A program made the translations under genes and the position numbers. The notes under the pieces were generated by a model that did no database searches, was not told the DNA's origin, and saw only the letters and a program-made list of their open reading frames with translations. Below are positions 2,089-52,931 of a DNA stretch of 64,000 bases, piece by piece. The first letter of the stretch is position 1; every line of letters begins with the position of its first letter. Origin of the DNA: Sediminibacterium sp. Gen4 (GTDB lineage: Bacteria > Bacteroidota > Bacteroidia > Chitinophagales > Chitinophagaceae); contig NZ_JACBFI010000001.1 in the NCBI RefSeq assembly GCF_013391385.1, positions 159,961 to 223,960 of the forward strand, read 5' to 3'.

Positions 2089-3189
2089 ATGGCAGAACGC
2101 AATACTTATTATGCAAACCGATTATTTACAGGAAGCAAATGGCTGAATCAATATGTAGTCGTTACGGAACGTGGTGCTATTATTGATATTCTTCCTGCTA
2201 CTGCTATTCATGAACCATACACTGCTCAGTTCTCATTGATGGCACCGGCATTCATGGATATTCAGATTTACGGAGCTTATGATCGTTTACTTGCTGTGTA
2301 TCCGGAAGTAACTTCACTGGAACGTCTATACGAGTATTGCAAAAAAGGGGGTGCTGCTTATTTTCAACCTACCGTTGCCACTAATAGTTACGAGGTATTC
2401 AAAAAATGTATTGATGCCGTTCGTGCTTACAAACAAATGGGTGGTAAAGGCTGTATCGGTTTGCATGTAGAAGGTCCGTGGATCAATCCGGTGAAGAGAG
2501 GAGCACATCAAGAGCAATACATTCATGCTCCCACATTGGAACAAGTACGTGAACTACTGGAATATGGAAAAGGTATTATCACCATGATCACACTTGCGCC
2601 GGAGGTTTGCAGTCAGGAAGTATTATCGCTGATTCGTTCTTATGGTATTGTGATCTCTGCCGGACACAGCAACGCTACTTATGAAGAAAGTATGTTAGCA
2701 TTTAAAAACGGAATAGGCGCGGCAACTCATTTATTCAATGCCATGAGTCCTTTACATCACCGTGAGCCTGGATTGGCAGGTGCTATTTTAGACCATGAAA
2801 CAGTGATGTGCAGTGTGGTACCCGATGGTTATCATGTTGACTTTGCCGCCATTCGTATTGCCAAAAAACAAATGAAAGAAAGGTTGTTTGCCATTACAGA
2901 TGCTGTTACCAATACAACTACCGGCCCCTACCCACATACACTCAAGGGCGATTATTATGAATCCGATGGCGTATTAAGTGGGTCTGCCTTGAATATGGTG
3001 AAGTGCGTACAAAATCTGGTACATAAAGCCAATATTCCACTGGAAGAAGCTTTCCGAATGGCCAGCCTCTATCCCGCACAGGTAATGGGCTTGGCTCACA
3101 GAAGCGGAAGAATTGAAAAAGGATACAATACAGCATTGACAGGCCTTAGTGAAACGTTGGATGTAATTGAGGTTGTTGATGGTCCATAG
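2089..3189 (+). CDS. nagA: N-acetylglucosamine-6-phosphate deacetylase
   Basis: GLHVEGPWI, SAGHSNAT, THLFNAM, HHREPG and TDA motifs. Confidence 0.93.
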   Translation: MAERNTYYANRLFTGSKWLNQYVVVTERGAIIDILPATAIHEPYTAQFSLMAPAFMDIQIYGAYDRLLAVYPEVTSLERLYEYCKKGGAAYFQPTVATNSYEVFKKCIDAVRAYKQMGGKGCIGLHVEGPWINPVKRGAHQEQYIHAPTLEQVRELLEYGKGIITMITLAPEVCSQEVLSLIRSYGIVISAGHSNATYEESMLAFKNGIGAATHLFNAMSPLHHREPGLAGAILDHETVMCSVVPDGYHVDFAAIRIAKKQMKERLFAITDAVTNTTTGPYPHTLKGDYYESDGVLSGSALNMVKCVQNLVHKANIPLEEAFRMASLYPAQVMGLAHRSGRIEKGYNTALTGLSETLDVIEVVDGP

Positions 3190-3239
3190 TCCATGGTCGA
3201 TAGTCTATGGTCCATAGCAAATGGTTCATGGCAAATGGT
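3177..3239 (+). repeat. Degenerate 7-bp tandem array (CCATAGT/CCATGGT family), 9 units
   Basis: tgatggt ccatagt ccatggt cgatagt ctatggt ccatagc aaatggt tcatggc aaatggt. Contains the nagA stop codon. Confidence 0.9.
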
Positions 3240-3241
3240 TA

Positions 3242-3286
3242 AAAAGGAAGAGGCAGTATCAGACTTTGATACCGCCTCTTCCTTTT
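3242..3286. terminator. Bidirectional hairpin terminator between convergent genes
   Basis: aaaaggaagaggc...gcctcttcctttt inverted repeat with A and T tails. Confidence 0.8.
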
Positions 3287-3349
3287 ACTATGGACTATAA
3301 GCCATCAGCCATTTGCTATGAACTATCAACCATGGACTATCGACTACTA
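3287..3349 (-). repeat. Inverted copy of the 7-bp array, 9 units
   Basis: actatgg actataa gccatca gccattt gctatga actatca accatgg actatcg actacta. Contains the stop of the S41 peptidase. Confidence 0.9.
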
Positions 3350-4815
3350 TCTATCATCCTCCTCACTTCACGCAACTTAATATCATAGCCCTCACGAATG
3401 GCTTGTGAAGAGGGTTTGATGGTTATATCCGGCATAATGCCTCTTCCTTTAAGTCGACTTTTGTCGATCACCAAACGATACAAAGGCAAACTCACTATAA
3501 GTCCGGAGTTGGGTAATGTGATCTTAGGAATATGCATGGCTGAATTACCATAATATCCACCGCCACTTTCTTCTCCCAACACTTTTACATTCGATTGTCC
3601 TTGTAAGTGCGATATGAACATGGTAGCGGCAGAAAAAGTATACCCACCTTGTATCAAATACAATTTACCATCATAATGATGTTTGGTAGCCGGTTTATAC
3701 TGATGTTGCTCATACCTGCGGTAATGAATTTTTCCATCTTTCATTTTCTTTCCGCCAAAATTCATCGCTAACCAATAAATAAATGAGGGTTTGATGTATC
3801 GGCTGTATTGCATTCGTCTACTGAATGCCACAATGCTATCGCCTACTTTAAAAGGCTTGTTGATAAGGTATCTGGTTAAATCAATACTATTATTAACATT
3901 ACCACCGCCATTCTCTCTCAAATCTATCACCAAGTTGGCAATGGAAAGACGATTCAGGGTTTTAAAACTTCGTCTGAAAAATGTTTTAAGTCTTCCTCCT
4001 GAAAAAGTGGTTAGACGAATAAAAGCGGTACTATGTAAAGTATCAATCAGCATCGAACGCTTATTCAACAAGCGCAGTTTTCTAATTTCTCGTCTCGTCA
4101 ATGTTGGTGTTGTATCGCGTATTTGTTTTTTTATTGTATCTTTTATCGGACGATATGCTTTGATACTGGCCTCTCTCTCTTGTCCAAGTGAATCTAGGTA
4201 TTGGATAACATATATCGAATCGCCATCACCCCAAATGGTTTTATACCAACCGGGAAAATTACCACTAATGACCTGACTTTTATGATTGGTGATATACCCA
4301 TCCGTACTGATATACTGATAAAGGGTATCTAAAATTTCTACAGGTGATCTTCCATTGATAGCTGTTACAATGGTTCCTCTTTTGAAAATTGAATCATTGT
4401 TATAAGCACTCCCCAATACTACCAAGCTATCATCCCAGGCCTTTAATGCCAATGGAAATTGAGGAAAGCGGTAGCGGTTGGCTATTTTACCATATGCTTT
4501 AGAAAATCGAACGGTGGTATGTCCGCAGCGAATGGTTGCGATCAATTTAGACAATCGGTTTTTATACTCTACTTCGTTCAGAGAATCGGTAATATTTGCA
4601 ATGGTTGTTTCAAAATAATAATCGATACTGTCTTTAGACGTGTACCAATATAAACTTGGGTGATTGGCTTCCAGCACTTTTTTAAGAATACGAATATCTT
4701 CCTTTAAATCTGCCACTGCCATTTTGGGAAGTGGAGGATAAAAATTTTGCGCAGGTACTGATGCTGAAACAATCAGCATAAAAACAACTGGTATAAATCT
4801 TTGGATAAAATTCAT
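3337..4815 (-). CDS. S41-family peptidase, secreted
   Basis: Signal peptide, HPSLY, RCGHT, LVIDLRENGGG, TFSAA catalytic Ser region and GEESGG. Confidence 0.85.
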   Translation of the reverse strand: MNFIQRFIPVVFMLIVSASVPAQNFYPPLPKMAVADLKEDIRILKKVLEANHPSLYWYTSKDSIDYYFETTIANITDSLNEVEYKNRLSKLIATIRCGHTTVRFSKAYGKIANRYRFPQFPLALKAWDDSLVVLGSAYNNDSIFKRGTIVTAINGRSPVEILDTLYQYISTDGYITNHKSQVISGNFPGWYKTIWGDGDSIYVIQYLDSLGQEREASIKAYRPIKDTIKKQIRDTTPTLTRREIRKLRLLNKRSMLIDTLHSTAFIRLTTFSGGRLKTFFRRSFKTLNRLSIANLVIDLRENGGGNVNNSIDLTRYLINKPFKVGDSIVAFSRRMQYSRYIKPSFIYWLAMNFGGKKMKDGKIHYRRYEQHQYKPATKHHYDGKLYLIQGGYTFSAATMFISHLQGQSNVKVLGEESGGGYYGNSAMHIPKITLPNSGLIVSLPLYRLVIDKSRLKGRGIMPDITIKPSSQAIREGYDIKLREVRRMIDSSR

Positions 4816-4821: not shown

Positions 4822-5856
4822 CTACTGCTGAAAAGCATTCCATCCCTGTGCAGTAATATCAAAACTGTTTCCTCCTTTGGTCAATAGCTTGCAACCCTCT
4901 TCGAGTTCAGCCATATAACCAATTACACTGATGTCTTCATTGAGTGTAATTTTATCATAGTCCTCTTGTTTGAGTGTAAAGATGAGTTCATAGTCCTCGC
5001 CTCCATTCAATGCGCAAACAGTAGGATCTAAACCAAATTTGAAAGCTGCTTTTCTACTATCTTCTGCAATAGGCAATTTTTCCTCATAAATACGACAACC
5101 CAATGCACTTTGTTTACAGATATGTAAAATTTCACTGCTGATGCCGTCGCTTACATCCATCATAGCAGTAGGAACGATATTATTTTGTTCAAAAAAGTCA
5201 ACGATCTCTTTTCGAGCTTCCGGTTTTAATAATCGCCCTACGATATAACTTTCATTCTCTAGATCAGGTTGAATTTTTGGATTTTCAAGATAAATCTTCT
5301 TCTCTCTCTCCATTAAAGTAAGTCCCAGATAAGCGCCCCCCAAATCGCCACTCACGCAAATCAAATCACCTTTTGAAGCAGTACTCCTTTTTACAAATTT
5401 TTCTGGTGCCACTTCTCCAATAGCAGTGACTGATATAACAAATCCTTTTGTAGAGGAAGAAGTATCGCCACCAATCAGGTCTACTTTATGTTTTTCACAA
5501 GCAAAGTGAACGCCTTCATAAAATTCAGTAATTGCTTCCAAACTAAAACGATTACTGATACCAATGCTCACGGTAATCTGCGTTGGTGTTGCATTCATAG
5601 CATAGATATCACTCAGATTCACCATTACTGCTTTATATCCCAAATGTTTTAATGGTGTATACATCAAATCAAAATGAATGCCTTCCAGTAATAAATCGGT
5701 AGTAATCACTGTTTGCTTCCCAAAATGATCGATCACAGCTGCATCATCACCTACACCCAAAATAGTTGACGCATTATGCGTTTCAAAATTCTTGGTGAGG
5801 TGTTCGATCAATCCAAATTCACCCAAACTCGCTATCTCTGTTCTTGTTTCACTCAT
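4822..5856 (-). CDS. thiL: Thiamine-monophosphate kinase
   Basis: LGEFGLIE, GVGDDAAV, EGIHFDL, NLSDIYAM, GGDT, DVSDG and GGEDYEL motifs. Start placed at MSETRTE (5856) rather than 5904. Confidence 0.95.
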   Translation of the reverse strand: MSETRTEIASLGEFGLIEHLTKNFETHNASTILGVGDDAAVIDHFGKQTVITTDLLLEGIHFDLMYTPLKHLGYKAVMVNLSDIYAMNATPTQITVSIGISNRFSLEAITEFYEGVHFACEKHKVDLIGGDTSSSTKGFVISVTAIGEVAPEKFVKRSTASKGDLICVSGDLGGAYLGLTLMEREKKIYLENPKIQPDLENESYIVGRLLKPEARKEIVDFFEQNNIVPTAMMDVSDGISSEILHICKQSALGCRIYEEKLPIAEDSRKAAFKFGLDPTVCALNGGEDYELIFTLKQEDYDKITLNEDISVIGYMAELEEGCKLLTKGGNSFDITAQGWNAFQQ

Positions 5857-5901
5857 AAAAAGGTAATTAATAATGAATATCGAATCATTGTTGTCCGGTG
5901 A

Positions 5902-6110
5902 CATCAGCTATGAGCTGCGAGCCTTGAGCTATGAGCCTTTTAATATTGAATTTGAAGCTTCAAATAGCATAGTTGCAATGATCAAATACTTCTTTATACA
6001 AATATTTTCCAAAAATTATTTTGCAAGCCCCACCATTTATTCCATTTATAGCAGATAGTCTACAATAACCAGCAATCATAGCTCGGAGCTCGTGGCTCAT
6101 CGCTCACAGC
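5902..6110. repeat. Inverted pair of 7-bp arrays (TGAGC family) at 5902-5936 and 6074-6110
   Basis: catcagc tatgagc tgcgagc cttgagc tatgagc ... aatcata gctcgga gctcgtg gctcatc gctcaca gc. Confidence 0.85.
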
Positions 6111-6893
6111 CTATTTTCCAACCGGACCTCCATTTACAATCGCTACAAGTTCGTCATGTATTTTGCCGTTGGTGGCTATGATATGTGGCTGGTAGGGCGA
6201 GTAATGATCACCTTTAAAGTCGGTCACTTTACCTCCCGCTTCTTCTACCATTAAAAATCCGGCTGCACTATCCCAGGCTTGTAATTTATGTTCATAGAAC
6301 CCATCAAAACGTCCGGCAGCAACCCAACATAAGTCAATAGCAGCACTACCCAGTCTTCTTACCGGAACACCTTTGCGGATCAGCTTTTCAAATACTTGTA
6401 ACGGACCGTTTTCCATATCCAGATAAGTATATGGAAATCCTGTTACCAAACAGCTTTTAATAACTTCCGTTTTATCACTCACCTGAATTTTTCTATCATT
6501 CAGTGTGGCACCAAATCCTTTTTGAGCAAAGTAAAATTCATTGATGAACGGATTGTATACTGCACCCAGTATCATTTCACCATCTTGTTCAATACCAATA
6601 CTCACACAACAAATGGGAATACCATTTGCGAAATTTACAGTACCATCAATCGGATCAATGATCCATTTATAAGAAGAGTCTTGAATGATTTCTCCTGTTT
6701 CTTCACTCAGAATAAAATGATCTGGAAAGTCTTGTCTGATCACTTCAAAAATGGCTTTTTCAGCAGCATGATCTGCCTCTGTAACCAGATTATTGATGCC
6801 TTCCTTATTGCTGATGGTAAATTGTCCGTTGAAAAAGTGTTGTAATTGTGCGGCTCCCGCCTCAGTAGCTTTGATAAGTGTTTGTTTCAACAT
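6111..6893 (-). CDS. suhB: Inositol monophosphatase family protein (SuhB-like)
   Basis: LVTEAD, SEE, WIIDPIDGTVNF, RRLGSAAIDL and WDSAAG motifs. Confidence 0.88.
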   Translation of the reverse strand: MLKQTLIKATEAGAAQLQHFFNGQFTISNKEGINNLVTEADHAAEKAIFEVIRQDFPDHFILSEETGEIIQDSSYKWIIDPIDGTVNFANGIPICCVSIGIEQDGEMILGAVYNPFINEFYFAQKGFGATLNDRKIQVSDKTEVIKSCLVTGFPYTYLDMENGPLQVFEKLIRKGVPVRRLGSAAIDLCWVAAGRFDGFYEHKLQAWDSAAGFLMVEEAGGKVTDFKGDHYSPYQPHIIATNGKIHDELVAIVNGGPVGK

Positions 6894-6905: not shown

Positions 6906-6923
6906 ACGAACCTGCGGTTAAGG

Positions 6924-6958
6924 GACAAGAAACATGACACAAGACACAAGTAACGAGA
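6924..6958 (+). repeat. 7-bp array (CACAAGA family)
   Basis: gacaaga aacatga cacaaga cacaagt aacgaga. Confidence 0.7.
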
Positions 6959-7004
6959 GTGAATACAGTGCTTCTGAGTATTATTGCATATTGAAAACCA
7001 TCAT

Positions 7005-12448: not shown

Positions 12449-13036
12449 CTACTTACGTATAGCATCTACAGCAGCAATCGCCTGTCGTAGGCGCTGATCA
12501 TAATCGCCACTGATCTCTACCCAGGGAGTTTGTTGATTCATCATGATATCTCTGTAAATATGATAGAGCTCTTGTCTGGGTTTTTCATCCGGATATTCGC
12601 GTAATTCATCTTGTACCCAAGGAAGATCCGGTTTGCATAAAAGATATAGATCGTATTGTCGATTCACAATTTGATCTAAAATATACTGATGACATTTCTG
12701 AAACACGTACTCGCACCACACTTTCATCACATACATATCTGTATCAATAAAAAGAAGAGGACGCCGTTCAGATGTTTGCATTGTTCTTGAATTCACCCAA
12801 ATACTATTGACCATGGACCATGGACCATGGACCATAGAAATAAACTCATCTTCCAAAGCCAGTTGACCCTTCGCAATGGTGAGTAGATCTTCAAATTTAT
12901 AAGCGGTTCCATTCGTCAACAGATATTCCCGCGCAAATTCAGGGCACCAGGCTGTTGCATAGTGCTGCGCCAGCAACTCACACAATGTGCTCTTGCCGGT
13001 AGACTCGGGACCAAGTATGACGATCTTTTGAATCAT
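12449..13036 (-). CDS. NadR-type AAA_28 ATPase/kinase
   Basis: Walker A GPESTGKST, PEFAREYL, LFIDTD, YDLYLL and WVQDELRE motifs. Start MIQKIV at 13036. Carries an in-frame repeat insertion. Confidence 0.88.
   Translation of the reverse strand: MIQKIVILGPESTGKSTLCELLAQHYATAWCPEFAREYLLTNGTAYKFEDLLTIAKGQLALEDEFISMVHGPWSMVNSIWVNSRTMQTSERRPLLFIDTDMYVMKVWCEYVFQKCHQYILDQIVNRQYDLYLLCKPDLPWVQDELREYPDEKPRQELYHIYRDIMMNQQTPWVEISGDYDQRLRQAIAAVDAIRK
12803..12837 (-). repeat. 7-bp array inside a coding sequence
   Basis: Plus strand actattg accatgg accatgg accatgg accatag, encoding SMVHGPWSMVNS. Confidence 0.9.
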
Positions 13037-13053
13037 GAGTACCAATACTCCGA

Positions 13054-13129
13054 GCAACTCTGCGTAAACCTCTGTGACACGCTGTGGTTAATTTACCACA
13101 GGGGTACACGGAGTTTGGCACGGAGTTGC
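13054..13129. repeat. Imperfect palindrome of ~9-bp units (CTCTGTG/CACAGAG family)
   Basis: Left arm gcaactctgcgtaaacctctgtgacacgctgtggt pairs with right arm accacaggggtacacggagtttggcacggagttgc. Confidence 0.75.
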
Positions 13130-13139
13130 ACAGATTTTT

Positions 13140-17188: not shown

Positions 17189-17824
17189 TTATTGTTTAGT
17201 AATCTTGATTTCATTCGGTGGAATAGGAGCAGGAACACGGTTATTAATAGCTGGTAATGACATCAGATAAGTATAAACCGAGCTGAGGTCTTCATCAGTC
17301 ATTTTAGAAACCATTTCCCACGGCATCGGCGGCATTACCGGTCTGCCACCTTCTTGTCCGAGGTGCTTTCCTGTTCTGAGTGTTTTTATAAATACCTGTT
17401 CTGTCCAGTTGCCGATACCTGTTGCTTCATCAGGTGTGAGGTTGGCTGCAAAACTCATCCCCCATGGACCGGCGAAAGCTGTAACATCTTGCGACATTTT
17501 CACCCAATTTTGATCTTTTGCCAATGCACTACTCAAAGTAGGAATTCCATTCTCTACCGGGAAACCAGATAAGAGTCTACTAGAATCCAATATCGGTCCC
17601 TGAGCTGTCATAATTTTTGGAGAATGACAATCATGACAAAGTGCTATCGTAACTAAATACTTACCACGAGCAATCAATTCATCTTTCTCTTTTTTGCGAA
17701 TAGTAGAGATATCGTCTTTTTTGGTCTCTTTATCATTGCTACTTGCTTCGCTACAAGCGGCAATGACTGCGATTACCGATAATACTACCACGGTAATCTG
17801 CAAGGTTTTGCTTTTCATGTTCAT
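17189..17824 (-). CDS. c-type cytochrome lipoprotein
   Basis: Lipobox IAAC, heme motif CHDCH, and NLTPD..TGIG.W and PPMPW motifs. Start placed at MNMKSK. Confidence 0.85.
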   Translation of the reverse strand: MNMKSKTLQITVVVLSVIAVIAACSEASSNDKETKKDDISTIRKKEKDELIARGKYLVTIALCHDCHSPKIMTAQGPILDSSRLLSGFPVENGIPTLSSALAKDQNWVKMSQDVTAFAGPWGMSFAANLTPDEATGIGNWTEQVFIKTLRTGKHLGQEGGRPVMPPMPWEMVSKMTDEDLSSVYTYLMSLPAINNRVPAPIPPNEIKITKQ

Positions 17825-17960
17825 GTTTGTTGGTATTAAGTGTTTCGTTGGTGATCTACAGAAAACAACCTGCTTTATTGCGATCACGGGGCAAACATAA
17901 AACGGCAAAATCCTGCAGCCAATCACACAAAAATGTGGTTGGGATGGAAGGAAGGAGAGG

Positions 17961-18199
17961 GCTGCAAGCGGTAAGCAGCAAGCTACAAGTGGGTTGTAGG
18001 ATCATTAACCTACTTATAAAAACAAAAATACCCGGCAACTACAGCCGGGTATTTATAATGATGTTCTTCTTTTTTGGAATTGGCCTTACTATAGCAAAGT
18101 CGACTTCTCCTGAATTTTCTCGCCGGACTTTAGTCCGGCGCTATTTAAAATTGAAGCTTGTTGCTTGTCACTTTCTCGTGTCTTGTTACTTTGTTCTTG
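17961..18199. repeat. Inverted 7-bp arrays (17961-17988 and 18151-18199) enclosing two hairpins
   Basis: gctgcaa gcggtaa gcagcaa gctacaa ... ttgaagc ttgttgc ttgtcac tttctcg tgtcttg. Inner hairpins at 18026-18054 and 18121-18140. Confidence 0.8.
18026..18054. terminator. Hairpin terminator
   Basis: aaatacccggc...gccgggtattt. Confidence 0.65.
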
Positions 18200-18206
18200 C
18201 ACCTTC

Positions 18207-18839: not shown

Positions 18840-18911
18840 AACGTTCTTTTACTGCATCAAAACTACCGGCTATTACTTTGTTAGCCAACCGCATAATAAT
18901 GTTAGGGTAGT

Positions 18912-19027
18912 CTATAGCTTATGGCGAATGGTTCATGGCGAGTAGTAGAAAAGACGTTTAGGGAAGAGTAATTATCTGTTTCCCATAAACGGGCTATTCG
19001 CCATGAACCATTCGCTATGAACCATGG
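18912..19027. repeat. Inverted 7-bp arrays (CCATGGT family) around an inner hairpin
   Basis: ctatagc ttatggc gaatggt tcatggc ... cgtttagggaa..ttcccataaacg ... gctattc gccatga accattc gctatga accatgg. Confidence 0.85.
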
Positions 19028-19280
19028 TCTATTAAAGTTACTACTCTAAGCCCCTGATTCAAAATATTTACACCGAAAACCACATACTTATGTGATGTGA
19101 TTTTTAACAGCAAAATCAGGCATTTCACTGACAGACGGTGATTAATGCGGATAGAAAGTGGTGAATGTTAAAACTAGCAGACTGCTCCACAACTTAGTTG
19201 CTGTTTTTCACATGGAAATGCGGTTGAATAAGGGTTTTTATCGATGCATTTTTGCAGCATCAAATTAAAACAATCAGCAC

Positions 19281-19358
19281 ATGAAAGGAAAATTCATCAC
19301 TACCGCATTGATCATAGCAGTGATCGCCGGTGGTAAGAAATCAACTTCACTCGCATAA
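19281..19358 (+). CDS. Putative small hydrophobic peptide, 25 aa, below the ORF-track cutoff
   Basis: MKGKFITTALIIAVIAGGKKSTSLA*. Preceded by catttttg and an A-rich leader, followed by a strong hairpin at 19437-19467. Confidence 0.45.
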   Translation: MKGKFITTALIIAVIAGGKKSTSLA

Positions 19359-19436
19359 GGCGAGAACAACCCTGGTAAGGGTTTTTAAATAAGGCAAGTT
19401 TGGGTTTTTTATAAGCAGTATGTTAGAAGCAGAGCA

Positions 19437-19467
19437 AACAGGTTACACAACAAGTGTGTAACCTGTT
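19437..19467 (+). terminator. Hairpin closing the small-ORF unit
   Basis: Perfect 12-bp stem aacaggttacac/gtgtaacctgtt. Confidence 0.6.
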
Positions 19468-19524
19468 CTCATTTTAGCTCCTGCTAAATACATCAAATAA
19501 AACTTCTTACATACTATTTTGAGT

Positions 19525-19558
19525 AAAAAAATAGAGCCCGATAAGACTACCGGGCTCT
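19525..19558 (-). terminator. Intrinsic terminator after the 19641 gene
   Basis: agagcccg/cgggctct stem with an A run. Confidence 0.6.
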
Positions 19559-19640
19559 TCCCTTGGCAGGGAACCTATAGAAAACAAGAATAAAAAAATC
19601 ACTTCATCATTCAATATTCTTTATTCGACGTTCATCATTC

Positions 19641-20489
19641 TCAAAGCCTGATACCGGCAGAAAGATTCAGATAAAACATGCTTTTTCCGCGCTCTGAAAG
19701 ATCTGGTCTTCCTGCCGTGGTTATCAGGTTTTGTGGCATTACATAGGATGGTGTAATGGCCAAATTGCATTTACCCTTGACAAATACAATGGGCATGGCT
19801 ATTTCATAGGAAAGTATATTGAATTGGGTAATATTCTCCGTAGTTCTCTGCGTTACAGGAATACCCAATACGTTTTTTCTTTCGAGATAGGTATTGCTAA
19901 ATTGTTGTGTCCCTAAATTGGCAGTGAAAGAAGGTGCTAATGCAATAGCTGCATTGTTCATCCCTTTATTAATAAGAAACAAATGATCTACTCCCAAACT
20001 GGCATTGACATCTGTTTTATCACTGAATAATAAATTCAATCCGCCATTCAAGTTCAATATTTTATTTAGGTAACTAAGGTTAGCTCCCGTTTGTGATTTA
20101 ATGGCTGATTGTACCAATGTACTCTCATCTTTGTACAAAAAGCGAGAGAAAAATAGATTACCGGAAAAATGATCTGTCTCCGGAAAACGATACCCGGCTT
20201 CAATCGTAGCACCCGTATAAGCCGTCGATTGCATACTGTTCTGAACAAAAATGAAAGTTCCCTGTGTATAGAATCCCCCTTTGAGTTGAAAACCTAACAT
20301 GGGAAATAAACCACTGCTTCGCAAGCTATCGGTTCGACCAAAAAAGTGCAAGGCCGATTGATAATTCATAGATGCAGTGAATTCATTTTTTTGCTTGGTT
20401 TCATCTCCGGCTTCTTGTGCCAGCATGAATAAGGGACAAAACATTGCCAGCAAAAGCAATGTGCTGCTTTTGAACTTTTTCATAACCAT
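19641..20489 (-). CDS. Hypothetical outer-membrane beta-barrel protein
   Basis: Signal peptide, alternating amphipathic strands and C-terminal YLNLSAGIRL. Confidence 0.7.
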   Translation of the reverse strand: MVMKKFKSSTLLLLAMFCPLFMLAQEAGDETKQKNEFTASMNYQSALHFFGRTDSLRSSGLFPMLGFQLKGGFYTQGTFIFVQNSMQSTAYTGATIEAGYRFPETDHFSGNLFFSRFLYKDESTLVQSAIKSQTGANLSYLNKILNLNGGLNLLFSDKTDVNASLGVDHLFLINKGMNNAAIALAPSFTANLGTQQFSNTYLERKNVLGIPVTQRTTENITQFNILSYEIAMPIVFVKGKCNLAITPSYVMPQNLITTAGRPDLSERGKSMFYLNLSAGIRL

Positions 20490-23425: not shown

Positions 23426-24378
23426 GTATCCGCGTTATCAAAAAAGGAATACTCGATACCATTCAAGATGAAGGTAGGTATGGATACCAACACTTGGGTA
23501 TTCATCCATCCGGAGTAATGGATTCTGTAGCGATGCGTATGGCCAATACATTACTAGGAAATGCTATTCAAGAACCTGTTTTGGAAATTCATTTTCCGGC
23601 TCCCACTCTTTTGTTTGAAGAAGATGCATTGATTGCCATTGGCGGCGCAGATTTTGATGCAAGATTAAATCGTGATTTATCAGTTCCGATCAATCGATGT
23701 ATTGCCATCAAAGCAGGTACAGAATTGTCTTTTCAACAAAAGATCCGTGGAGCACGTGCTTATATTGCAGTTCGTGGTGGTGTTCAAAGCGCTCTTTGGC
23801 TAAACAGTGCTGCTACTCCCGTTGGATTTACTTCCATTGGTACACAATTGCAAAATGAAATGATTCTTCCTTTCAAGAACAATGATTTTCAGGTTGCTGA
23901 AAATAAAATATTCTCTTGGACCGCCCTCTCACCCGTAAATTATCAGGATACAATCATTCGTTATACTGCAGGACATGAAATCAGCCGATTGAATGATGCA
24001 ATGCAAACATTAGTAGACGACAGTACTTTTATAATCGACAAAAGCAGTAACAGAATGGGATATCGATTAGTAGGACCTTCCATTATCCCAAATACCCACA
24101 CCGAAATACTTTCTACTGCCGTTACACGAGGCACCATACAATTACTTCCTAGTGGACAACTTATCATTTTAATGGCAGACCACCAGACCACAGGCGGTTA
24201 TCCAAGAATGGGTCATATTATCACTGCAGATCTTCCAAAACTTGCACAGCGCAATGCCGGAGAAAGTTTTCAATTCAAGCGCGTTTCTCTTCATGAAGCA
24301 CACAAAGCATTACAAGCGCAGGAATTACATTTGAAACAATTGGAAACAGGTTGTAAATTACGAAGTGTGATTTTTTGA
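23422..24378 (+). CDS. pxpC: 5-oxoprolinase subunit C (biotin-dependent carboxyltransferase family)
   Basis: TIQDEGR.G, GVMD, GARAYIAVRGG, SNRMGYRL and D.QTTGGYP motifs. Confidence 0.92.
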   Translation: MSIRVIKKGILDTIQDEGRYGYQHLGIHPSGVMDSVAMRMANTLLGNAIQEPVLEIHFPAPTLLFEEDALIAIGGADFDARLNRDLSVPINRCIAIKAGTELSFQQKIRGARAYIAVRGGVQSALWLNSAATPVGFTSIGTQLQNEMILPFKNNDFQVAENKIFSWTALSPVNYQDTIIRYTAGHEISRLNDAMQTLVDDSTFIIDKSSNRMGYRLVGPSIIPNTHTEILSTAVTRGTIQLLPSGQLIILMADHQTTGGYPRMGHIITADLPKLAQRNAGESFQFKRVSLHEAHKALQAQELHLKQLETGCKLRSVIF

Positions 24379-24450
24379 TTTTTTGATCTGGGAAAAATTG
24401 ATCAATACTTAGTAAAATCAAGAAATCAAAGATCAAAAAATCAAAGATCA
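24368..24450. repeat. Inverted arrays of 7-8-bp units (TGATTTT/AAAATCA family)
   Basis: tgattttt tgattttt tgatctgg ... aaaatcaa gaaatcaa agatcaa aaaatcaa agatca. Spans the pxpC stop and the pxpA start. Confidence 0.75.
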
Positions 24451-26365: not shown

Positions 26366-26376
26366 GAAATGGCTAC

Positions 26377-28566: not shown

Positions 28567-28706
28567 AGTTGGTTAAAGTAATAGCAAATAAGTTGGTATT
28601 TCTACGGAGAAACAGTATATCTATCAAGTCTCGCATTTAATCAATCATAAGGGTCATTTAATAAACACCCATTGCTGTACTCTAGCTATGCAACTACCTT
28701 GTATTT

Positions 28707-29285: not shown

Positions 29286-29317
29286 TCACACAAACTATCA
29301 AATTAAAAACTACAAAA

Positions 29318-40644: not shown

Positions 40645-40893
40645 ATGAAAGACATGAACCGTGATCTCTGGCTGCTCTGTAAGCATGATTACATGACACA
40701 GTCTGAACTCGATCGTCAGGTGAGCCTGTTGAATACCCTTTTATACCATGCTGAGAATTGGAATAATTTCTGCTCCTCCCACGAGATCCTCGACATCAAC
40801 CGACGCAAAATCATCCGCAAGCCACATCTGATGCAAAGTATTTTGCATGAAAGAAGATTGAAGGCTTTTGTGTTTGTGAACAATCTAAATTAA
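40645..40893 (+). CDS. Small hypothetical protein, 82 aa
   Basis: ATG after an A-rich leader, plausible composition, ends in FVFVNNLN. Converges on a repeat/hairpin element. Confidence 0.7.
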   Translation: MKDMNRDLWLLCKHDYMTQSELDRQVSLLNTLLYHAENWNNFCSSHEILDINRRKIIRKPHLMQSILHERRLKAFVFVNNLN

Positions 40894-41025
40894 GCTGCAA
40901 CCGACAAGCCGCAAGCTTCACGTTTGATATCTGATGATTTGAGCTTTTGCTTCTATATCAAGATCAGCGGTTGTTTAATTAGAAAAATACTTGCAGCATG
41001 AAGCTTGTAGCCTGCGGCTCATAAC
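40892..41025. repeat. Inverted 7-bp arrays (AAGCTGC family) between convergent genes
   Basis: aagctgc aaccgac aagccgc aagcttc ... ttgcagc atgaagc ttgtagc ctgcggc tcataac. Confidence 0.78.
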
Positions 41026-42284
41026 AGCTTCCCTAAAGCACCTTCCAACTTCTCCAACATCTCCCCAATCTCTTCTTTCTTACACGTACCCACACTTAAA
41101 CGATACCATGGACTATTGGCTCCGGCGCCGAAGGCTGAGAAGGGTACCACTGCTAGTTTGGCTTCTGCAAGAATGTAAGACGTTACGTCTGATTGTGTTT
41201 CAAGTTTTTTTCCGTCGGCTGTGGTTTTACCTACCAGGTCTATTTTGATGGTGAGATAGATGGCCGCTTGTGGTGCAACGGCATCAACAGGATAGCCTTT
41301 TTGTTTGAGGGCAATAAAACCATCATGAATATTTCTCAAACGCAATTCCACTTCTGATTTGAAATGGGTGAGGTAGCGTTGAATATTTTCTTTCTGCAAT
41401 AAATATTGAGCCACAGCTTTCTGTTCTGCCATGGGTGCCCAGGCACCTACATGACTTAAAATCGCTTTCATCTTAGCAATCACTGTGCTAGGACCCAATG
41501 CCCATCCTACACGTACACCGGTAGCAGCAAATACTTTAGAGATACCATCAATGAAAATGGTGTAGTCTTTCATCGCAGGTCTTAAGTGCAGTGGATTGTA
41601 GTGAACAGTAGTGCCATAGGTGAGTGTCCAGTACATTTGATCAAACATCAAATAACATTTCTTTTCACCTTCCCCTCTTTTTGCATTCTCTTCCAATATC
41701 AGATCACAAATAGCTTCCAGACTTTCTTTTTTGAGTGTGGTGCCTGTAGGATTTTGTGGTGTACAAATACAAATAAGTGTAGCGCCACTGATATTTTTTT
41801 TGATGTCTTCTACAGTAGGCATGAAATCATTCTCTACAGTACACTCAACCACACAATGCACTGCATCGGTCAAGTGTGTATAATGATTGTTATTCCAGGA
41901 AGGAACACCATAGATCACTTTATCGCCTTTGTCAACGATGGCTTTGAACAAAGTATAGATCAACGGACGACCACCGGCTGCTATTTGAATTTCATTGGGT
42001 TCAAAACTTAAGCCTTCCCATTCTTGAATGAATGCTGCTACAGACTTACGCAGATCCAACACGCCTTCTGCTGCAGGATAGCTGGTATTTCTTTTGCGAT
42101 AAGAATCGATAATGAGTTCTTCCAACTCTGTAGGAATAGGGAATACAGAAGGATCAAAATCACCAATAGTGAGGTTATAGATCTTTTCACCATTGCGAAT
42201 ACGCTCACTGATGGCATTACCCAGTTTCACGATCTCACTGCCCGATAAGGTTTCTGCTAAATGACTCAGTTTCGGCGTACTCAT
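41019..42284 (-). CDS. Class I/II PLP-dependent aminotransferase
   Basis: LTIGDF, PQNPTG, DQMY and DGISK.FAATGVRVGW (PLP-binding Lys) motifs. Confidence 0.92.
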   Translation of the reverse strand: MSTPKLSHLAETLSGSEIVKLGNAISERIRNGEKIYNLTIGDFDPSVFPIPTELEELIIDSYRKRNTSYPAAEGVLDLRKSVAAFIQEWEGLSFEPNEIQIAAGGRPLIYTLFKAIVDKGDKVIYGVPSWNNNHYTHLTDAVHCVVECTVENDFMPTVEDIKKNISGATLICICTPQNPTGTTLKKESLEAICDLILEENAKRGEGEKKCYLMFDQMYWTLTYGTTVHYNPLHLRPAMKDYTIFIDGISKVFAATGVRVGWALGPSTVIAKMKAILSHVGAWAPMAEQKAVAQYLLQKENIQRYLTHFKSEVELRLRNIHDGFIALKQKGYPVDAVAPQAAIYLTIKIDLVGKTTADGKKLETQSDVTSYILAEAKLAVVPFSAFGAGANSPWYRLSVGTCKKEEIGEMLEKLEGALGKLL

Positions 42285-42314: not shown

Positions 42315-42341
42315 AGTTTTTCCAATGGAGAATGAGGGAAA

Positions 42342-42376
42342 TATTGAATGTAGAATAATGAATTATGAATATCGAA
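42342..42376 (+). repeat. 7-bp array (nnnnGAA family)
   Basis: tattgaa tgtagaa taatgaa ttatgaa tatcgaa. Confidence 0.7.
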
Positions 42377-42407
42377 GAGAAATTGACGGTTGGGTGACAT
42401 GAGAATG

Positions 42408-42464
42408 ATAAAGCCGCAGATTCGCAGATTAATTCAACTAAAATCTGCGAATCTGCGGCTTTAT
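42408..42464. repeat. Perfect 23-bp inverted repeat with CGCAGAT units
   Basis: ataaagccgcagattcgcagatt-N11-aatctgcgaatctgcggctttat. Confidence 0.85.
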
Positions 42465-47507: not shown

Positions 47508-47542
47508 AGAAAGCTGTGAGCTACGAGCTTTGAGCCATGAGC
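47508..47542 (+). repeat. 7-bp array (TGAGC family)
   Basis: agaaagc tgtgagc tacgagc tttgagc catgagc. Same family as 5902-5936. Confidence 0.8.
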
Positions 47543-47565
47543 TGGAAGGTGTTTTATAACAGCTC

Positions 47566-47718
47566 ACTGTGTTCCTCTGTGCCATACTCTGTGTAACTCG
47601 GTGGTTTTTCGCCAAAGACTTTCTCAAGTATTCAAGAATAACGGAGTATTTCTGTGGACTTCTGTGTCTTCAGTGGCAATTAATCGGCAAAAAAATATTG
47701 CCACTGAAGACACAGAAG
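47566..47718. repeat. CTCTGTG-type units plus a perfect 22-bp inverted repeat (47659-47718)
   Basis: cttctgtgtcttcagtggcaat-N16-attgccactgaagacacagaag, with ctctgtg units upstream. Confidence 0.8.
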
Positions 47719-47741
47719 AGCACTGAGGTTTTGGCGGGAGT

Positions 47742-49031: not shown

Positions 49032-49045
49032 TTTTGCGGAGGATG

Positions 49046-49172
49046 GAACGCAGATTTTTTCCCAGGAATCCTTTGGATATGATGATCATGATTTGCGCAG
49101 ATGAGTTACAAAAAATCATGACGTATCATGACAATCATATCCAAAGGACTCTGGCGGAGAAAATCCGTGTTC
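49046..49172. repeat. ~125-bp nested palindrome (CGCAGAT/ATCATGA family)
   Basis: Perfect core arms tcctttggatatgat (49069-49083) and atcatatccaaagga (49134-49148). Outer arms gaacgcagatttt and aaaatccgtgttc. Confidence 0.8.
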
Positions 49173-49574: not shown

Positions 49575-49656
49575 ATGGGACGCAGATTATTATGATTGAT
49601 TATGACCTAGGCAGATAAAATATCATCATAACCCATCATAATAATCTGCGTCCCAT
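49575..49656. repeat. Perfect 22-bp inverted repeat (CGCAGAT family)
   Basis: atgggacgcagattattatgat ... atcataataatctgcgtcccat. Confidence 0.85.
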
Positions 49657-49692: not shown

Positions 49693-49727
49693 ACCATTTG
49701 CCATGAACCATCAGCCATACACTACTA
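49693..49727 (-). repeat. 7-bp array (CCATGGT family) containing the msrB stop
   Basis: accattt gccatga accatca gccatac actacta. Confidence 0.8.
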
Positions 49728-50306: not shown

Positions 50307-50432
50307 TAAAATTACGTTTATCGTGGGTGAATAGTTTACTGTTAAACTGACGAACAGTCGTTTTTTCCCTTACAATTTGCAGTTATTCAAGGTTTTAATG
50401 TGTTGTTAAATGTTTTTTTAAACGATCAGGCT

Positions 50433-50440
50433 TATATTTG
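50433..50440 (+). promoter_or_regulatory. -7 box TATATTTG for adk
   Basis: Exact TAnnTTTG match 25 nt upstream of the ATG. Confidence 0.6.
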
Positions 50441-50465
50441 TTCTTCACGTAAGGTTAGTTAGTAC

Positions 50466-51044: not shown

Positions 51045-51085
51045 TCTAATTATATATAAGAGTTTAACAACCAATAACCAACTGC

Positions 51086-51115
51086 ACCCGCTCTGTTTTT
51101 TGAGCGGGTTTTTTT
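51086..51115 (+). terminator. Intrinsic terminator after adk
   Basis: acccgctc/gagcgggt stem followed by a T run. Confidence 0.8.
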
Positions 51116-51213
51116 ATGCCTGATGGCTGTCAAGATGCTGTTAAAGCTGAACGATCACTACAACCCCTTTCATTTTACACCCTTAGTTTTGCCCTCCCCC
51201 GTGTTGAAGTGGC

Positions 51214-51933
51214 ATGGAACAAATGTGTATGATCAGCAAAAAAATTCAACTCGTTCTATTCTGTCTGGTAATAGCTACCGGTTTTTCTTTCAAAGAGAAA
51301 TCAACAGCTATTACAAACAAGCATATATCAACTTCGTATGTTAATGCAGCCACTGCCATCTATGAAAACCTGGATCTCGCGTCACTCGGACTTTCCAAAA
51401 AAGCCTATGAATGGGCATTAGCGGGTTATGAACGTTTAAAGTCGGGCGGACAAATTATGCAAGAGCATATTTTATCCGTAGTTGATTTTAGTCTGCCTTC
51501 TAATCAGAAAAGATTATTTGTGATTGATGTATTGAAAGGCGAATTGCTCTTTCATACCTATGTATCACATGGAAAAAATTCCGGTAAGTTGATGGCCAAA
51601 AAATTCTCGAATAAAGCCAGCAGTTTTCAGAGCAGTATTGGTTTCTATACTACCGGAGAGCCTTATCAGGGAAAACATGGCTTATCACTTCGTTTGATCG
51701 GGAAAGAAAAGGGCATTAATGATAAAGCATTGCAAAGGGGTATTGTAATTCATGGGGCGGATTATGCAGAAGAAGGCATTGCAGCCAGACAAGGTTATTT
51801 GGGAAGAAGCCTGGGGTGTCCCGCAGTACCTCAATCTATTCATCGCGAATTGATCGCTACCATTCAAAATGGAAGTTGTTTTTTTATCTATGCACCGATA
51901 CTCGGCTACTCCAAACGGTCAAAATTCATTTAA
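51214..51933 (+). CDS. Murein L,D-transpeptidase catalytic domain (YkuD_2) protein
   Basis: VDFSLPS..KRL, VSHG.NSG, FSN...S..SS.GF and IVIHGA.Y...GRS.GCPA motifs. Confidence 0.88.
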   Translation: MEQMCMISKKIQLVLFCLVIATGFSFKEKSTAITNKHISTSYVNAATAIYENLDLASLGLSKKAYEWALAGYERLKSGGQIMQEHILSVVDFSLPSNQKRLFVIDVLKGELLFHTYVSHGKNSGKLMAKKFSNKASSFQSSIGFYTTGEPYQGKHGLSLRLIGKEKGINDKALQRGIVIHGADYAEEGIAARQGYLGRSLGCPAVPQSIHRELIATIQNGSCFFIYAPILGYSKRSKFI

Positions 51934-52004
51934 TCATTTGTTCCGACCGTACAACCTATTTTAACAGCTATTTGCCCTTATGAGCTGTCTATCTTTATTA
52001 TAAG

Positions 52005-52856
52005 GTGCAACACGTAGAATTTTTTCATACCGACCATTTCGAACAGAACTACAGACGACAGAGGGCGGCTTCGTCTATTTCGTATTTCATCGACTTTTTC
52101 TGGGAAACAGATTTTGATCACCTGTGGGACTTGTATCCCAAGGGTTTTTCAGATGCCCTATTCCCAAATACCGGCTACACCTATCTGATCAATTTGGGTA
52201 CTCCTTTTGTAATGCAGGTAGGAGAAAAGCGTTTTGACATGAAGACCGATGGTTTTCTTCCCAGACATCGCGCCATTGAATGCTTCCATCAAAAGGGAAA
52301 TAAACTCTTTGGTATCAAGTTCAAAATATCACCTGTGATTTTTGAGAAGAAAATCAACTTCTCAGAATACCGAGAATATATTTTCCCCTTAAGTTATTTG
52401 ATGGACTCTGGTATGTTGAGTAAAATAAAAATCTGTTCTTCATTTGATGAGCGGGTTTCTATTCTCACTGATTATTTTGAAAAGATCATTGATCAATATT
52501 CCGGCTCTTTAAAGCCTATTGAAATTGTTTCGAAAATATTGGCACATTGTGAAACCAAGAGAGATTTTATAACACCGGTTGAAGATTTTGCCAAACAATA
52601 CAATATCTCTTCCCGAACATTACAGCGCTACTTTGAAACAGCTACCAGCATCAGTACCAAAACAGCTATTCAAATCATGCGCATCAGAAAAGCCACTGAA
52701 CATCTGGCTATTGATCCGGACACGTTTAACAGTGCAGACTATGGCTACTATGATCACAGCCATTTCTACAAACACCTCAAAAGTTTCCTCCAAAAAAATA
52801 CACTTAAAAAATTACAGCCTCATTTGAAGTTGTTGGAGAAGTTGCATGGGAGATAG
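52005..52856 (+). CDS. AraC-type HTH regulator (DUF6597-like N-terminus)
   Basis: LSxYIxxFW-like N-terminus, ISSRTLQRYF, and C-terminal GYYDHSHF.K..K.F. Confidence 0.8.
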   Translation: MQHVEFFHTDHFEQNYRRQRAASSISYFIDFFWETDFDHLWDLYPKGFSDALFPNTGYTYLINLGTPFVMQVGEKRFDMKTDGFLPRHRAIECFHQKGNKLFGIKFKISPVIFEKKINFSEYREYIFPLSYLMDSGMLSKIKICSSFDERVSILTDYFEKIIDQYSGSLKPIEIVSKILAHCETKRDFITPVEDFAKQYNISSRTLQRYFETATSISTKTAIQIMRIRKATEHLAIDPDTFNSADYGYYDHSHFYKHLKSFLQKNTLKKLQPHLKLLEKLHGR

Positions 52857-52931
52857 TTAATAGCTAATGGTCCATAGTCCATAGCAGAACCCATATTCTT
52901 CTTGCTATGGACTATGGACTATCGACTATGT
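52851..52931. repeat. Inverted 7-bp arrays (CCATAGT family) between convergent genes
   Basis: agatagt taatagc taatggt ccatagt ccatagc ... gctatgg actatgg actatcg actatgt. Contains the AraC stop. Confidence 0.88.

Follow-up and report, generated by a model that had tools for sequence, protein, structure and literature searches.

The question raised by the locus studied here is what the numerous degenerate seven-nucleotide repeats lying between its genes represent, and whether they belong to a known class of repetitive element. The window, i.e., the whole stretch of 64,000 nt analyzed, originates from Sediminibacterium sp. Gen4 (Chitinophagaceae, Bacteroidota; assembly GCF_013391385.1, contig NZ_JACBFI010000001.1, positions 159,961-223,960), and the original prediction had described several families of heptamer arrays in it, arranged as inverted pairs. 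Our results show that slipped-strand mispairing and the recombinational replacement of whole spacers generate the arrays and keep reshaping them at the DNA level. They also show that the arrays share the architecture of those bracketing cassettes with an Avd-like, four-helix-bundle gene (TIGR02436/PF05635) in related loci, other Chitinophagaceae, Bernardetia, a Monoglobus plasmid, and many cyanobacteria. At one site in the relatives, gene-less array pairs were shown to be leftovers of a decayed cassette open reading frame (ORF), and the pairs of the window may have the same origin. On balance, it appears somewhat probable that the arrays are lineage-specific heptamer repeats similar to short tandemly repeated repetitive (STRR) sequences, remodelled by slippage and recombination, whose inverted pairs form stems of the cassette-flank class, and for which a role in RNA processing, termination, or insulation is proposed.

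For comparison, 61 syntenic loci (labelled L001 onward) were obtained by scanning species-representative genomes with the S41 peptidase. All of them belong to Sediminibacterium or other Chitinophagaceae, the top loci featuring 94-95% amino-acid identity, and the nearest metagenome contig, L063, is approximately 95% identical to the window at the DNA level.

Period-7 signal and inverted pairs

Arrays were searched for in 28-nt segments by counting the bases identical to the base 7 nt onward. In total, 13 arrays reached at least 19 of 28 lag-7 matches, whereas 30 dinucleotide-preserving shuffles gave 0.47 on average and never more than 2. The predicted excess of period-7 signal over shuffled DNA was thus confirmed within the window, and the arrays are longer than expected by chance, which makes them long simple sequence repeats (SSRs, tandem units of 1-11 nt) in the sense of Mrazek. 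Lags of 5, 6, 8, and 9 nt yielded between zero and two arrays, and the raised values at lags 14 and 21 were harmonics. At a threshold of 18/28, 16 arrays were detected, 11-12 of them intergenic, where the non-coding DNA between genes accounts for 5.7 kb or 9% of the window. Tandem Repeats Finder reported period-7 or period-14 arrays at almost every position named in the original prediction, and about 22 arrays were legible by eye.

Within the ATRG runs of up to nine units, the core AT(A/G)G was invariant and positions 6-7 carried only 0.1-0.2 bits; since these units were picked by their core, only the contrast between core and flank is informative. This agrees with the patterned degeneracy noted before, namely a fixed core with variable flanks. 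The 14-nt super-period seen by Tandem Repeats Finder arises because the purine at unit position 3 often alternates. The idea that the cores CATG, AGCT, and GATC represent restriction sites was dropped, their window-wide observed/expected ratios being unremarkable (0.83-1.08).

An inverted-repeat search confirmed five inverted pairs with arms 71-82% complementary, and their RNA folds were compared with those of shuffled sequences:

3165-3239 / 3294-3368: inverted pair, 75-nt arms, 71% complementary, RNA fold z = -12.4
5906-5934 / 6076-6104: inverted pair, 79% complementary, RNA fold z = -3.3
18908-18945 / 18994-19031: inverted pair, 82% complementary, RNA fold z = -8.0
24374-24402 / 24417-24445: inverted pair, 79% complementary, RNA fold z = -5.1
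52849-52886 / 52903-52940: inverted pair, 76% complementary, RNA fold z = -7.4

The paired arrangement described previously therefore holds for these five pairs with their strong folds, and only weakly for two further claimed pairs (17961-18199 and 40892-41025), which feature the CAAG/AAGC core in opposite orientation with weak complementarity (z = -2.0 for 40885-41030). Hairpins with tandem 8-11-nt units in their arms were also present (13058-13139, 42408-42464, and 47651-47726). Terminator-like hairpins lie inside some pairs (3242-3286 and 18026-18054), and another one was located at 19533-19558; the arrays themselves are not of terminator form (G+C-rich hairpin followed by a U run). Searching the window with Rfam 15 resulted in no match at gathering score, and the tRNA scan of the window was also empty.

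Arrays bracketing four-helix-bundle genes

In the relatives, inverted heptamer arrays were found around genes of one protein family. The spacer between the inositol monophosphatase (IMPase) gene and thiL in L015 contains an ORF of 122-138 residues matching TIGR02436 (E 8e-17) and PF05635, the protein of 23S rRNA intervening sequences (IVSs), with inverted TACGAAG arrays on both sides, and a similar ORF with an internal stop lies between GATTTAC arrays in L032. The closest relatives for junction comparison of these two cassettes are no closer than 81% nucleotide identity. When the ORFs of the window and of 141 loci were all searched with an iterated hidden Markov model (HMM), 16 matches were obtained, none of them in the window, and nearly all of the matched genes were flanked by inverted heptamer arrays. 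In 12 loci, the four-helix-bundle gene is located between a pnuC-like gene and nadR, in the order upstream stop, (GAATnnT)n, palindromic motif GCGTATTTATACGC(TA), approximately 50 nt, ORF, (AnnATTC)n, and downstream ATG; this leader motif was present in 7 loci. Homologues in three unrelated contexts of other Chitinophagaceae feature the same inverted flanks.

To quantify this association, arrays of at least 18/28 on both flanks were counted: 14 of 20 four-helix-bundle genes were bracketed in this way, whereas among 444 control genes of the array-rich loci this applied to 21 (Fisher p 3e-13, or 1e-9 with 12 independent sites counted once). Furthermore, a tblastn survey of 72,556 plasmids returned 22 records, comprising 20 cyanobacterial ones, one from Bernardetia, and one from Monoglobus. 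Ten of these were inspected (Nostoc, Anabaena, Planktothrix, Dolichospermum, Aulosira, Bernardetia, and Monoglobus), and in all ten, inverted heptamer arrays touch the ORF:

Nostoc punctiforme: (CAATTCG)4 / (CGAATTG)4
N. flagelliforme and Aulosira: (AATTCAA)4 / (TTGAATT)4-5
Dolichospermum: (TAATTCG)4(GAATTTG)7 / (TTACGAA)4
Nostoc HK-01: (GAGGTCG)4 / (CGACCTC)3
Planktothrix: AATCCCC/AATCGTA
Anabaena cylindrica and Nostoc TCL26-01: GTAAAAA, both between cas2 and cas1
Bernardetia, and Monoglobus between hsdS and hsdR: looser versions

The suggestion in the original prediction that heptamer arrays flank TIGR02436 genes was accordingly correct for the relatives and the cyanobacterial plasmids. Several plasmid cassettes reside in defence operons, namely L158 and L162 (cas2/cas1; CRISPR adaptation), L164 (hsdS/hsdR; type I restriction-modification), and L159 (drmD/pglX; DISARM/BREX). 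Among the four-helix-bundle proteins, identity amounts to 60-100%, whereas the units beside their genes are completely different. In L073 (15560-16300), the small palindrome CCCGCC(C/T)(A/G)GGCGGG occurs at mirrored positions in both cassette arms; therefore, the two arms changed together.

The pnuC-like/nadR site also provides a decay series. The gene is intact in L064-L067, L006, and L009, frameshifted in L005, L012, and L069, and deleted in L003 and L004, where the ORF is gone and both arrays together with a recognisable leader motif are kept. Since the arrays outlive the ORF in L003 and L004, gene-less array pairs can be cassette remains. The proposal that the arrays are remnants of a small element was thus supported at this one site in the relatives, but none of the window's pairs could be demonstrated to derive from a cassette. 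An 82-100-nt hairpin composed of 11-nt units with a CTGTG core occupies the pnuC-like/nadR spacer instead in the window, L001, L063, and L010.

The 23S rRNA IVSs with a PF05635 ORF, known from Leptospira and others, contain the founding members of the family, and their stems are RNase III sites. The cassettes described here are similar in that an Avd-like ORF lies in the loop of an inverted-repeat stem within operons (cas2/cas1, hsdS/hsdR, drmD/pglX, and IMPase/thiL). They differ in that IVSs lie in rRNA, whereas the pairs of the window are devoid of an ORF, and neither a reverse transcriptase nor repeats of a diversity-generating retroelement (DGR) were found nearby. To our knowledge, rRNA IVS stems are not known to consist of heptamer arrays. 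PF05635 is presented as a family resembling the DGR accessory protein Avd (PMC10053308). Our search of the available literature revealed no published link between TIGR02436/PF05635 genes and heptamer arrays, though such a link may be noted in a database comment. Tentatively, inverted heptamer arrays and the Avd-like gene might together constitute one undescribed IVS-like cassette class occurring in Cyanobacteria, Bacteroidota, and at least one Bacillota plasmid. Such cassettes would insert between operon genes, including those of defence operons, their stems would be RNA-processed, and STRR-type arrays, including the gene-less pairs of the window, would be their flanks or footprints; we consider this broader proposal possible rather than probable. 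The origin and function of heptamer repeats represent a long-standing question, which becomes testable through the link to the four-helix-bundle gene. According to the rule to be checked, inverted heptamer arrays bracket the genes of this widespread Avd-like family in three phyla, and the bracketed genes can decay to bare array pairs.

Turnover, position, and possible function of the arrays

Array density ranged between 1 and 5 per 10 kb in L001-L012, L058, L062-L067, and L069, representing the subclade of the window. Most of the remaining Chitinophagaceae loci, among them those of S. salmoneum, S. ginsengisoli, and Sediminibacterium sp. C3, were free of arrays, which do occur in a few more distant ones. 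The presence/absence polymorphism among relatives, which had been suggested as a test of the arrays, turned out to be abundant and was accompanied by replacement by other families at the same sites. The IMPase/thiL spacer, for example, measures 0-35 nt in most loci. In this spacer, L012 and L002-L005 carry a compact palindromic GAATATC array, L006-L011 and L058 carry AACAGAG/AATAAGG arrays, L022 carries a GTGAACC pair (z = -8.8), and L015 and L032 carry the TACGAAG and GATTTAC pairs, respectively, around their four-helix-bundle ORFs, while the TGAGC pair 5902-6110 with its 131-nt spacer was found only in the window and L001. Similarly, the spacer between the S41 peptidase and amidohydrolase genes amounts to 8 nt in L004/L005 (a short CCATGG-centred palindrome), 15 nt in L003, 106-113 nt in L002/L012, and 147 nt in the window and L001. 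The long versions carry a terminator-like hairpin at the center (3242-3286; present in the window, L001, L012, and L002, and absent from L003-L005), and single units were gained and lost between the window and L001.

The spacer 24379-24449 between two pxp-type genes features a TGATTTT family common to the window and the distant L065, and a different family, GATGTCT/GATCGCA, in L062-L064, L066, and L069, including the 95%-identical L063. Five perfect GATCGCA units were counted in L063, four in L064, and two in L069, and seven GATGGCA units in L062; these copy-number differences are slippage in the manner of a variable number of tandem repeats (VNTR) and affect one arm only. The earlier statement that slippage would not easily give such arrays was therefore too strong. 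Upstream of the response regulator (18908-19031), the site was filled in L062-L066 and L069. The pair had differing loops and inner units in six relatives, other families took its place in L065 and L067, and L068 lacked it. The replacements of spacers run exactly from stop codon to start codon, at times including the last or first few codons, and therefore fit allelic exchange by homologous recombination rather than transposition.

These observations bear on the possibility that the arrays are neutral by-products of slippage in a lineage prone to 7-nt slippage, tolerated under weak selection in intergenic DNA or a protein loop. Quasi-palindromic units (CCATGG+N, GAATTC-like, AGCT, GATC) and terminator palindromes would then seed both arms, and the arrays would have neither a function nor a special tie to the cassettes. 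VNTR-like copy numbers, one-armed expansions, and unit indels between near-identical strains are in line with this explanation, as are the many cores that are 4-6-nt palindromes and the "pair" of L004/L005 in the S41/amidohydrolase spacer, which is one continuous quasi-palindromic array of 3-4 units. The array (ATGGTCC)4 inside the nadR-like gene of the window also fits; the segment of approximately 17 residues containing it was found in the array-bearing clade and a few neighbours and is absent from more distant Sediminibacterium. Because this array is translated, array growth takes place at the DNA level and can also affect coding sequence if the length is suitable. Moreover, as summarised in PMC4679880 and PMC4692102, heptanucleotides are the most abundant class of long SSRs in many bacteria, polymerase slippage being invoked (Mrazek 2007). 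However, neutral slippage leaves unexplained why unrelated families at a given site share one inverted architecture across species, why cores are fixed with free flanks and polarity beside stops is constant, and why inverted arrays are enriched on both sides of one gene family in three phyla. It is thus considered unlikely.

The filled and empty sites among relatives could also point to non-autonomous mobile elements resembling miniature inverted-repeat transposable elements (MITEs) or REPINs, the latter built from repetitive extragenic palindromic (REP) sequences. Hairpin units would in this case be copied by a transposase encoded elsewhere, e.g., a REP-associated tyrosine transposase (RAYT) or IS200-like enzyme, and the arrays would be terminal inverted repeats. 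Composite stretches identical at unrelated sites of the window (19 nt, 3221-3239 = 49693-49711; 24 nt, 24414-24437 = reverse complement of 38348-38371) are compatible with such copying. The intergenic, hairpin-forming nature of the arrays recalls REP sequences and bacterial interspersed mosaic elements (BIMEs), i.e., imperfect intergenic palindromes often located at 3' ends or between convergent genes, forming inverted doublets, and variably present among strains (PMC3116915). REPs, however, consist of one conserved 20-40-nt sequence per family spread by RAYTs (PMC3116915), whereas the stems of the window are built from tandem 7-nt units of many unrelated families with only the 19-24-nt stretches in common between sites. 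A blastn comparison of every spacer and loop with the window and the 61 loci returned only their own orthologues, so that no dispersed internal sequence was present in approximately 1.2 Mb of related DNA. No target-site duplication was visible at the junctions, the replacements run exactly from stop to start, and the Pfam scan, covering 20 window proteins, linked no transposase to the arrays. A mobile-element origin is consequently regarded as very improbable.

The S41 peptidase/amidohydrolase spacer was also observed to be an insertion hotspot (L006, 11450-13415; L011, 11492-12283; L058, 11450-12205; L008/L009, 11460-15300). L011 carries a nucleotidyltransferase-like ORF and two adjoining ORFs (by eye an MNT/HEPN pair), L006 several small ORFs, one of which is common to L058, and L008 and L009 inserts of 3.6-3.8 kb. 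A common gene partner beside the arrays of the relatives was ruled out, the L011 ORFs, the small ORFs of L006, a CorA-like gene of L062, and a 225-aa ORF of L065 being ordinary accessory or housekeeping genes. In L058, an assembly gap (run of N) falls exactly between two array arms. The arrays thus represent strain-level hypervariable markers and break assemblies, as in L058.

The arrays and associated elements identified in the window are as follows:

3177..3241, + strand: ATRGnnn (CCATRGT) array of 9 units; the amidohydrolase gene 2089..3189 ends with TAG 3187-3189 in unit 2
3242..3286, no strand assigned: central G+C-rich hairpin with 20-nt arms 95% complementary and flanking A and T runs, at the apex of the long stem
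3285..3353, - strand: ATRGnnn array pairing with 3177..3241, sense on the - strand; it overlaps the S41 peptidase gene (3337..4815) at its stop
5857..5885, - strand: remnant GAAnnnn/nnnATTC array just upstream of the thiL start (ATG at 5856)
5902..5940, + strand: TGAGC (nnnGAGC) array, arm 1, enclosing with arm 6070-6110 a unique 131-nt spacer (5941-6069)
6070..6110, + strand: TGAGC array, arm 2 (reverse complement), abutting the inositol monophosphatase gene stop (6111)
6913..6963, + strand: ACAAGnn array without partner in a divergent intergenic region
12801..12840, - strand: (ATGGTCC)4 array within the coding sequence of the nadR-like AAA_28 gene (translation MVHGPWSMV)
17959..17992, + strand: AAGCnnn array upstream of the cytochrome c gene 17189..17926, with a weak inverted partner at 18155-18206
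18155..18206, + strand: CAAG-core array, sense on the - strand, abutting the response-regulator gene stop (18207)
18908..18945, + strand: ATRGnnn array, arm 1, upstream of the response-regulator gene
18994..19031, - strand: ATRGnnn array, arm 2, pairing with 18908..18945
19603..19640, - strand: GAAnnnn array, no partner seen, directly after the stop of gene 19641..20489
24368..24402, + strand: TGATTTT array with the stop TGA (24376-78) of the CT_A_B carboxyltransferase gene inside a unit
24414..24450, + strand: AAATCAA array, reverse complement of 24368..24402, running into the ATG (24450) of the LamB/YcsF gene
38343..38396, + strand: TGATCTT/TTTGACT array with a stop TGA (38350-52) inside a unit
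40891..40922, + strand: AAGCnnn array, arm 1 of a weak pair, starting at the TAA stop of ORF 40645..40893, between convergent genes
40991..41023, - strand: AAGCnnn array forming arm 2, located where the aminotransferase gene 41019..42284 has its stop
42336..42380, + strand: single GAAnnnn array (period-7 scan)
47512..47544, + strand: single array of the TGAGC family (Tandem Repeats Finder and period-7 scan)
49693..49724, - strand: single ATRGnnn array abutting the SelR gene stop (49725)
52846..52887, + strand: ATRGnnn array forming arm 1; the HTH_18 gene ends inside it with TAG 52854-56
52902..52931, - strand: ATRGnnn array forming arm 2; the TonB-dependent receptor gene 52940..55483 has its stop 8 nt away

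Arrays start at or inside stop codons (TAG 3187-3189 and 52854-52856; TGA 24376-24378 and 38350-38352; TAA at 40891) or abut them (3337, 6111, 18207, 19641, 41019, and 49725). As at the cassette flanks, inverted heptamer arrays spanning the distance from an upstream stop codon to a downstream start codon were found in the window. In the ATRG family, the arm first reached by a transcript is always ATRG-sense, which places TAG in all three frames within three units. In the window and close relatives, 20 ATRG-type arrays beside stops were sense and 4 antisense (binomial p 0.0015, the orthologous copies not being independent), and the orientation claimed earlier for CCATRGT arrays relative to transcription was thereby substantiated. 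The array placed at 12803 was also recovered (12801-12840), although as a translated one inside the nadR-like gene. At the center of the first pair, the hairpin 3242-3286 looks like a two-way terminator at the stem apex. The hairpin 18121-18140 forms a module with array 18155-18206, and this module is tandemly duplicated in L064 and L065. The arrays also cause miscalls of start and stop codons, as illustrated by the thiL start and variable C-termini. Because the arrays stay open in frame, mechanical ORF calls overrun the true starts (5857-5904 and 13043-13057); the true thiL start is at 5856 (MSETRTEI), not 5904, and the nadR-like gene starts at the ATG of MIQKIVILG.

The proximity of some arrays to start codons (24414-24450; GAAnnnn arrays before thiL and nadR) would also suit periodic protein-binding sites. 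One unit per 7 nt would be bound either as single-stranded RNA or DNA by a cold-shock-domain or S1-type protein, or as duplex DNA by a nucleoid protein or a pentameric four-helix-bundle protein, which would regulate the adjoining genes. The fixed 4-nt core at exact 7-nt spacing is what such sites would be expected to display, and CspB, as summarised in PMC4679880, binds heptamer repeats with one protein per unit. In addition, the nearest solved structure to the four-helix-bundle proteins, 2RLD, is an uncharacterised protein with five chains in the PDB entry. At least eight unrelated cores would, however, require as many specificities, and genes for four-helix-bundle proteins 60-100% identical to one another are surrounded by completely different units. 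This explanation is likewise regarded as very improbable.

Returning to the stems of the cassette-flank class, the two arms are proposed to pair in the transcript (or in single-stranded DNA), resulting in a long imperfect stem. This stem would set apart whatever lies between the arms, be it a four-helix-bundle ORF, a terminator hairpin, or nothing, and might act as a processing, termination, or insulation element in the manner of the RNase III-cleaved stems of rRNA intervening sequences. Inserts could thereby be tolerated within operons, and such a role would explain the terminator-like hairpins at the apex of some pairs. A 4-nt core could pair in any 7-nt register and would thus survive the gain and loss of units while the three flanking positions drift.

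Several results weigh against this interpretation. As stated in the original prediction, no four-helix-bundle gene resides in the window: no ORF of at least 50 aa matched TIGR02436/PF05635 in the HMM search, and neither relaxed tblastn nor hmmsearch on fragments of at least 20 aa recovered a remnant there. The leader motif GCGTATTTATACGC(TA) had no match in the window at up to 3 mismatches, and the families bracketing cassettes in the sampled relatives (GAAnnnn, TACGAAG, and GATTTAC) are not the commonest of the window (ATRGnnn, TGAGC, and AAGC). Because gene, remnant, and motif are missing and the families differ, the window's own pairs are tied to the cassettes by architecture and neighbourhood only. 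Contigs assembled from RNA-seq runs with this strain cross the pairs 5902-6110 and 52846-52931 (stretches 5590-6362 and 52382-53489); these contigs, which carry no end information, argue against efficient termination, unless DNA was carried over into the libraries. Furthermore, the pairing of arrays is not strictly maintained, because recent expansions are one-armed (five GATCGCA units lacking a partner), several arrays stand alone, and complementarity is slight in two of the claimed pairs. Finally, the stem model leaves the 7-nt unit length unexplained and does not explain how cassettes arrive at new sites or what role the protein plays.

Known repeat classes and further observations

STRR heptamers were reportedly described by Mazel et al. 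in 1990 for heterocystous cyanobacteria. The arrays of the window resemble them in featuring tandem 7-nt units of several families that are dispersed, intergenic, and hypervariable between strains, and the inspected cyanobacterial four-helix-bundle genes are bracketed by such arrays. They differ in their host, which belongs to the Bacteroidota and not to the heterocystous cyanobacteria, in their more degenerate units (a 4-nt core with three free positions, often with a 14-nt super-period), and in the dominance of inverted pairs. A cyanobacterial origin of the window was ruled out by its gene content and best-matching loci, and the canonical STRR units (CCCCAGT, TTGGTCA, and CAACAGT) had no tandem copy in the window. 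The cyanobacterial framing chosen in the original prediction could hence not be upheld for this Sediminibacterium DNA. For Calothrix PCC 7601, three tandem heptanucleotides are cited in PMC4692102.

Long SSRs with heptanucleotide units (Mrazek, Guo and Shah 2007, as summarised in PMC4679880 and PMC4692102) show the same intergenic 7-nt excess, scattered lineages, and slippage, and occur in genes if their length is a multiple of three. These summaries refer to direct arrays treated statistically, whereas inverted pairing, core/flank structure, and a gene-family link do not appear in them. Direct repeats of TAACTGA are known from Beggiatoaceae, Cyanobacteria, and five Bacteroidetes (MacGregor 2015, PMC4679880), and a cold-shock-domain or S1-type protein was proposed to bind them (PMC4679880). 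Similarities to the arrays studied here comprise Bacteroidetes hosts (Flexibacter/Bernardetia litoralis, Gramella, Aequorivita, and Paludibacter), the location beside start and stop codons, an orientation bias, and shorter, repeat-free spacers in close relatives (PMC4679880). In contrast, TAACTGA is a single unit occurring nearly always as direct repeats upstream of starts, with one inverted case in 170 (PMC4679880). Neither TAACTGA nor any other published heptamer unit compared occurs in tandem in the window.

The GGGAATC / GGGGA(T/C)T repeats of Xanthomonas and Nostoc PCC 7120 (Rehm et al. 2015, PMC4692102) are likewise intergenic, in some cases inverted between convergent genes, and variable in length and sequence at the same site. 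They represent G-rich, quadruplex-forming single families (PMC4692102), whereas the units of the window are A+T-rich to mixed and belong to many families. In Haemophilus, 7-nt repeats in the 5' untranslated region act together with RNase III (PMC12721329). For the arrays as such, the designation as an undescribed system therefore goes too far, since heptanucleotide repeats, including those of a few Bacteroidetes, have already been published (PMC4679880, PMC4692102). Nor did the available literature contain an account of arrays of several families in inverted pairs for Chitinophagaceae, and repeats are not mentioned in the Sediminibacterium genome paper. A richer, inverted-pair form of heptamer repeats is thus seen here in a freshwater member of the Bacteroidota.

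A second dispersed hairpin family was observed, composed of units with a CTGTG/CAGTG core at a 9-11-nt period and a loop such as GGTAAATTAACC or GGCAATTAAT..GCC. Its sites include 13058-13139, 47563-47600, and 47651-47726 in the window, 1700-1800 in L010, 1-200 in L021, approximately 6250-6330 in L067, and positions before nadR in L008 and L058. Within the window, a 37-nt stretch (47569-47605) matches L010 and L007 at an unrelated site, and the family can occupy the same spacer as the four-helix-bundle cassette. Near-perfect hairpins were also located at 42408-42464, 49575-49656, and 49045-49170 (arms of 23 nt, 100%; 31 nt, 94%; and 38 nt, 79%), which share the motif CGCAGAT(T), present twice in tandem in the first of them, and may constitute a third repeat family. 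A perfect (ACTGTCA)x3 lies at 37534-37553 inside the overlapping ORFs 36691..37818 (- strand) and 37301..37861 (+ strand), and a TGACAGT-type array is also present in L063 and L065.

Just upstream of the cytochrome c gene 17189..17926, the stretch 17920-17943 (caatcacacaaaaatgtggttggg) contains the palindromic motif CCAACCACATTTTTGTGTGATTG, which is conserved even in the distant, array-less loci L068, L070, and L073 and is probably a binding site for a regulator. The 800-nt non-coding region 18840-19640 features terminator-like hairpins at 19533-19558 and 19437-19467 as well as a small ORF with a signal-peptide-like product (MKGKFITTALIIAVIAGGKK...). It is approximately 880 nt longer in L062, L065, and L066, and the extra DNA in L065 holds the uncharacterised 225-aa ORF. 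Among the proteins covered by the Pfam scan were the TonB-dependent receptor with CarboxypepD_reg and OMP_b-brl_3 domains and a BNR/Sortilin protein. Finally, the region 26314-36795 represents a strain-specific insertion or island of approximately 10.5 kb that none of the close metagenome relatives contains; in L062-L066 and L069, position ~36796 is joined directly to ~26313-26350.

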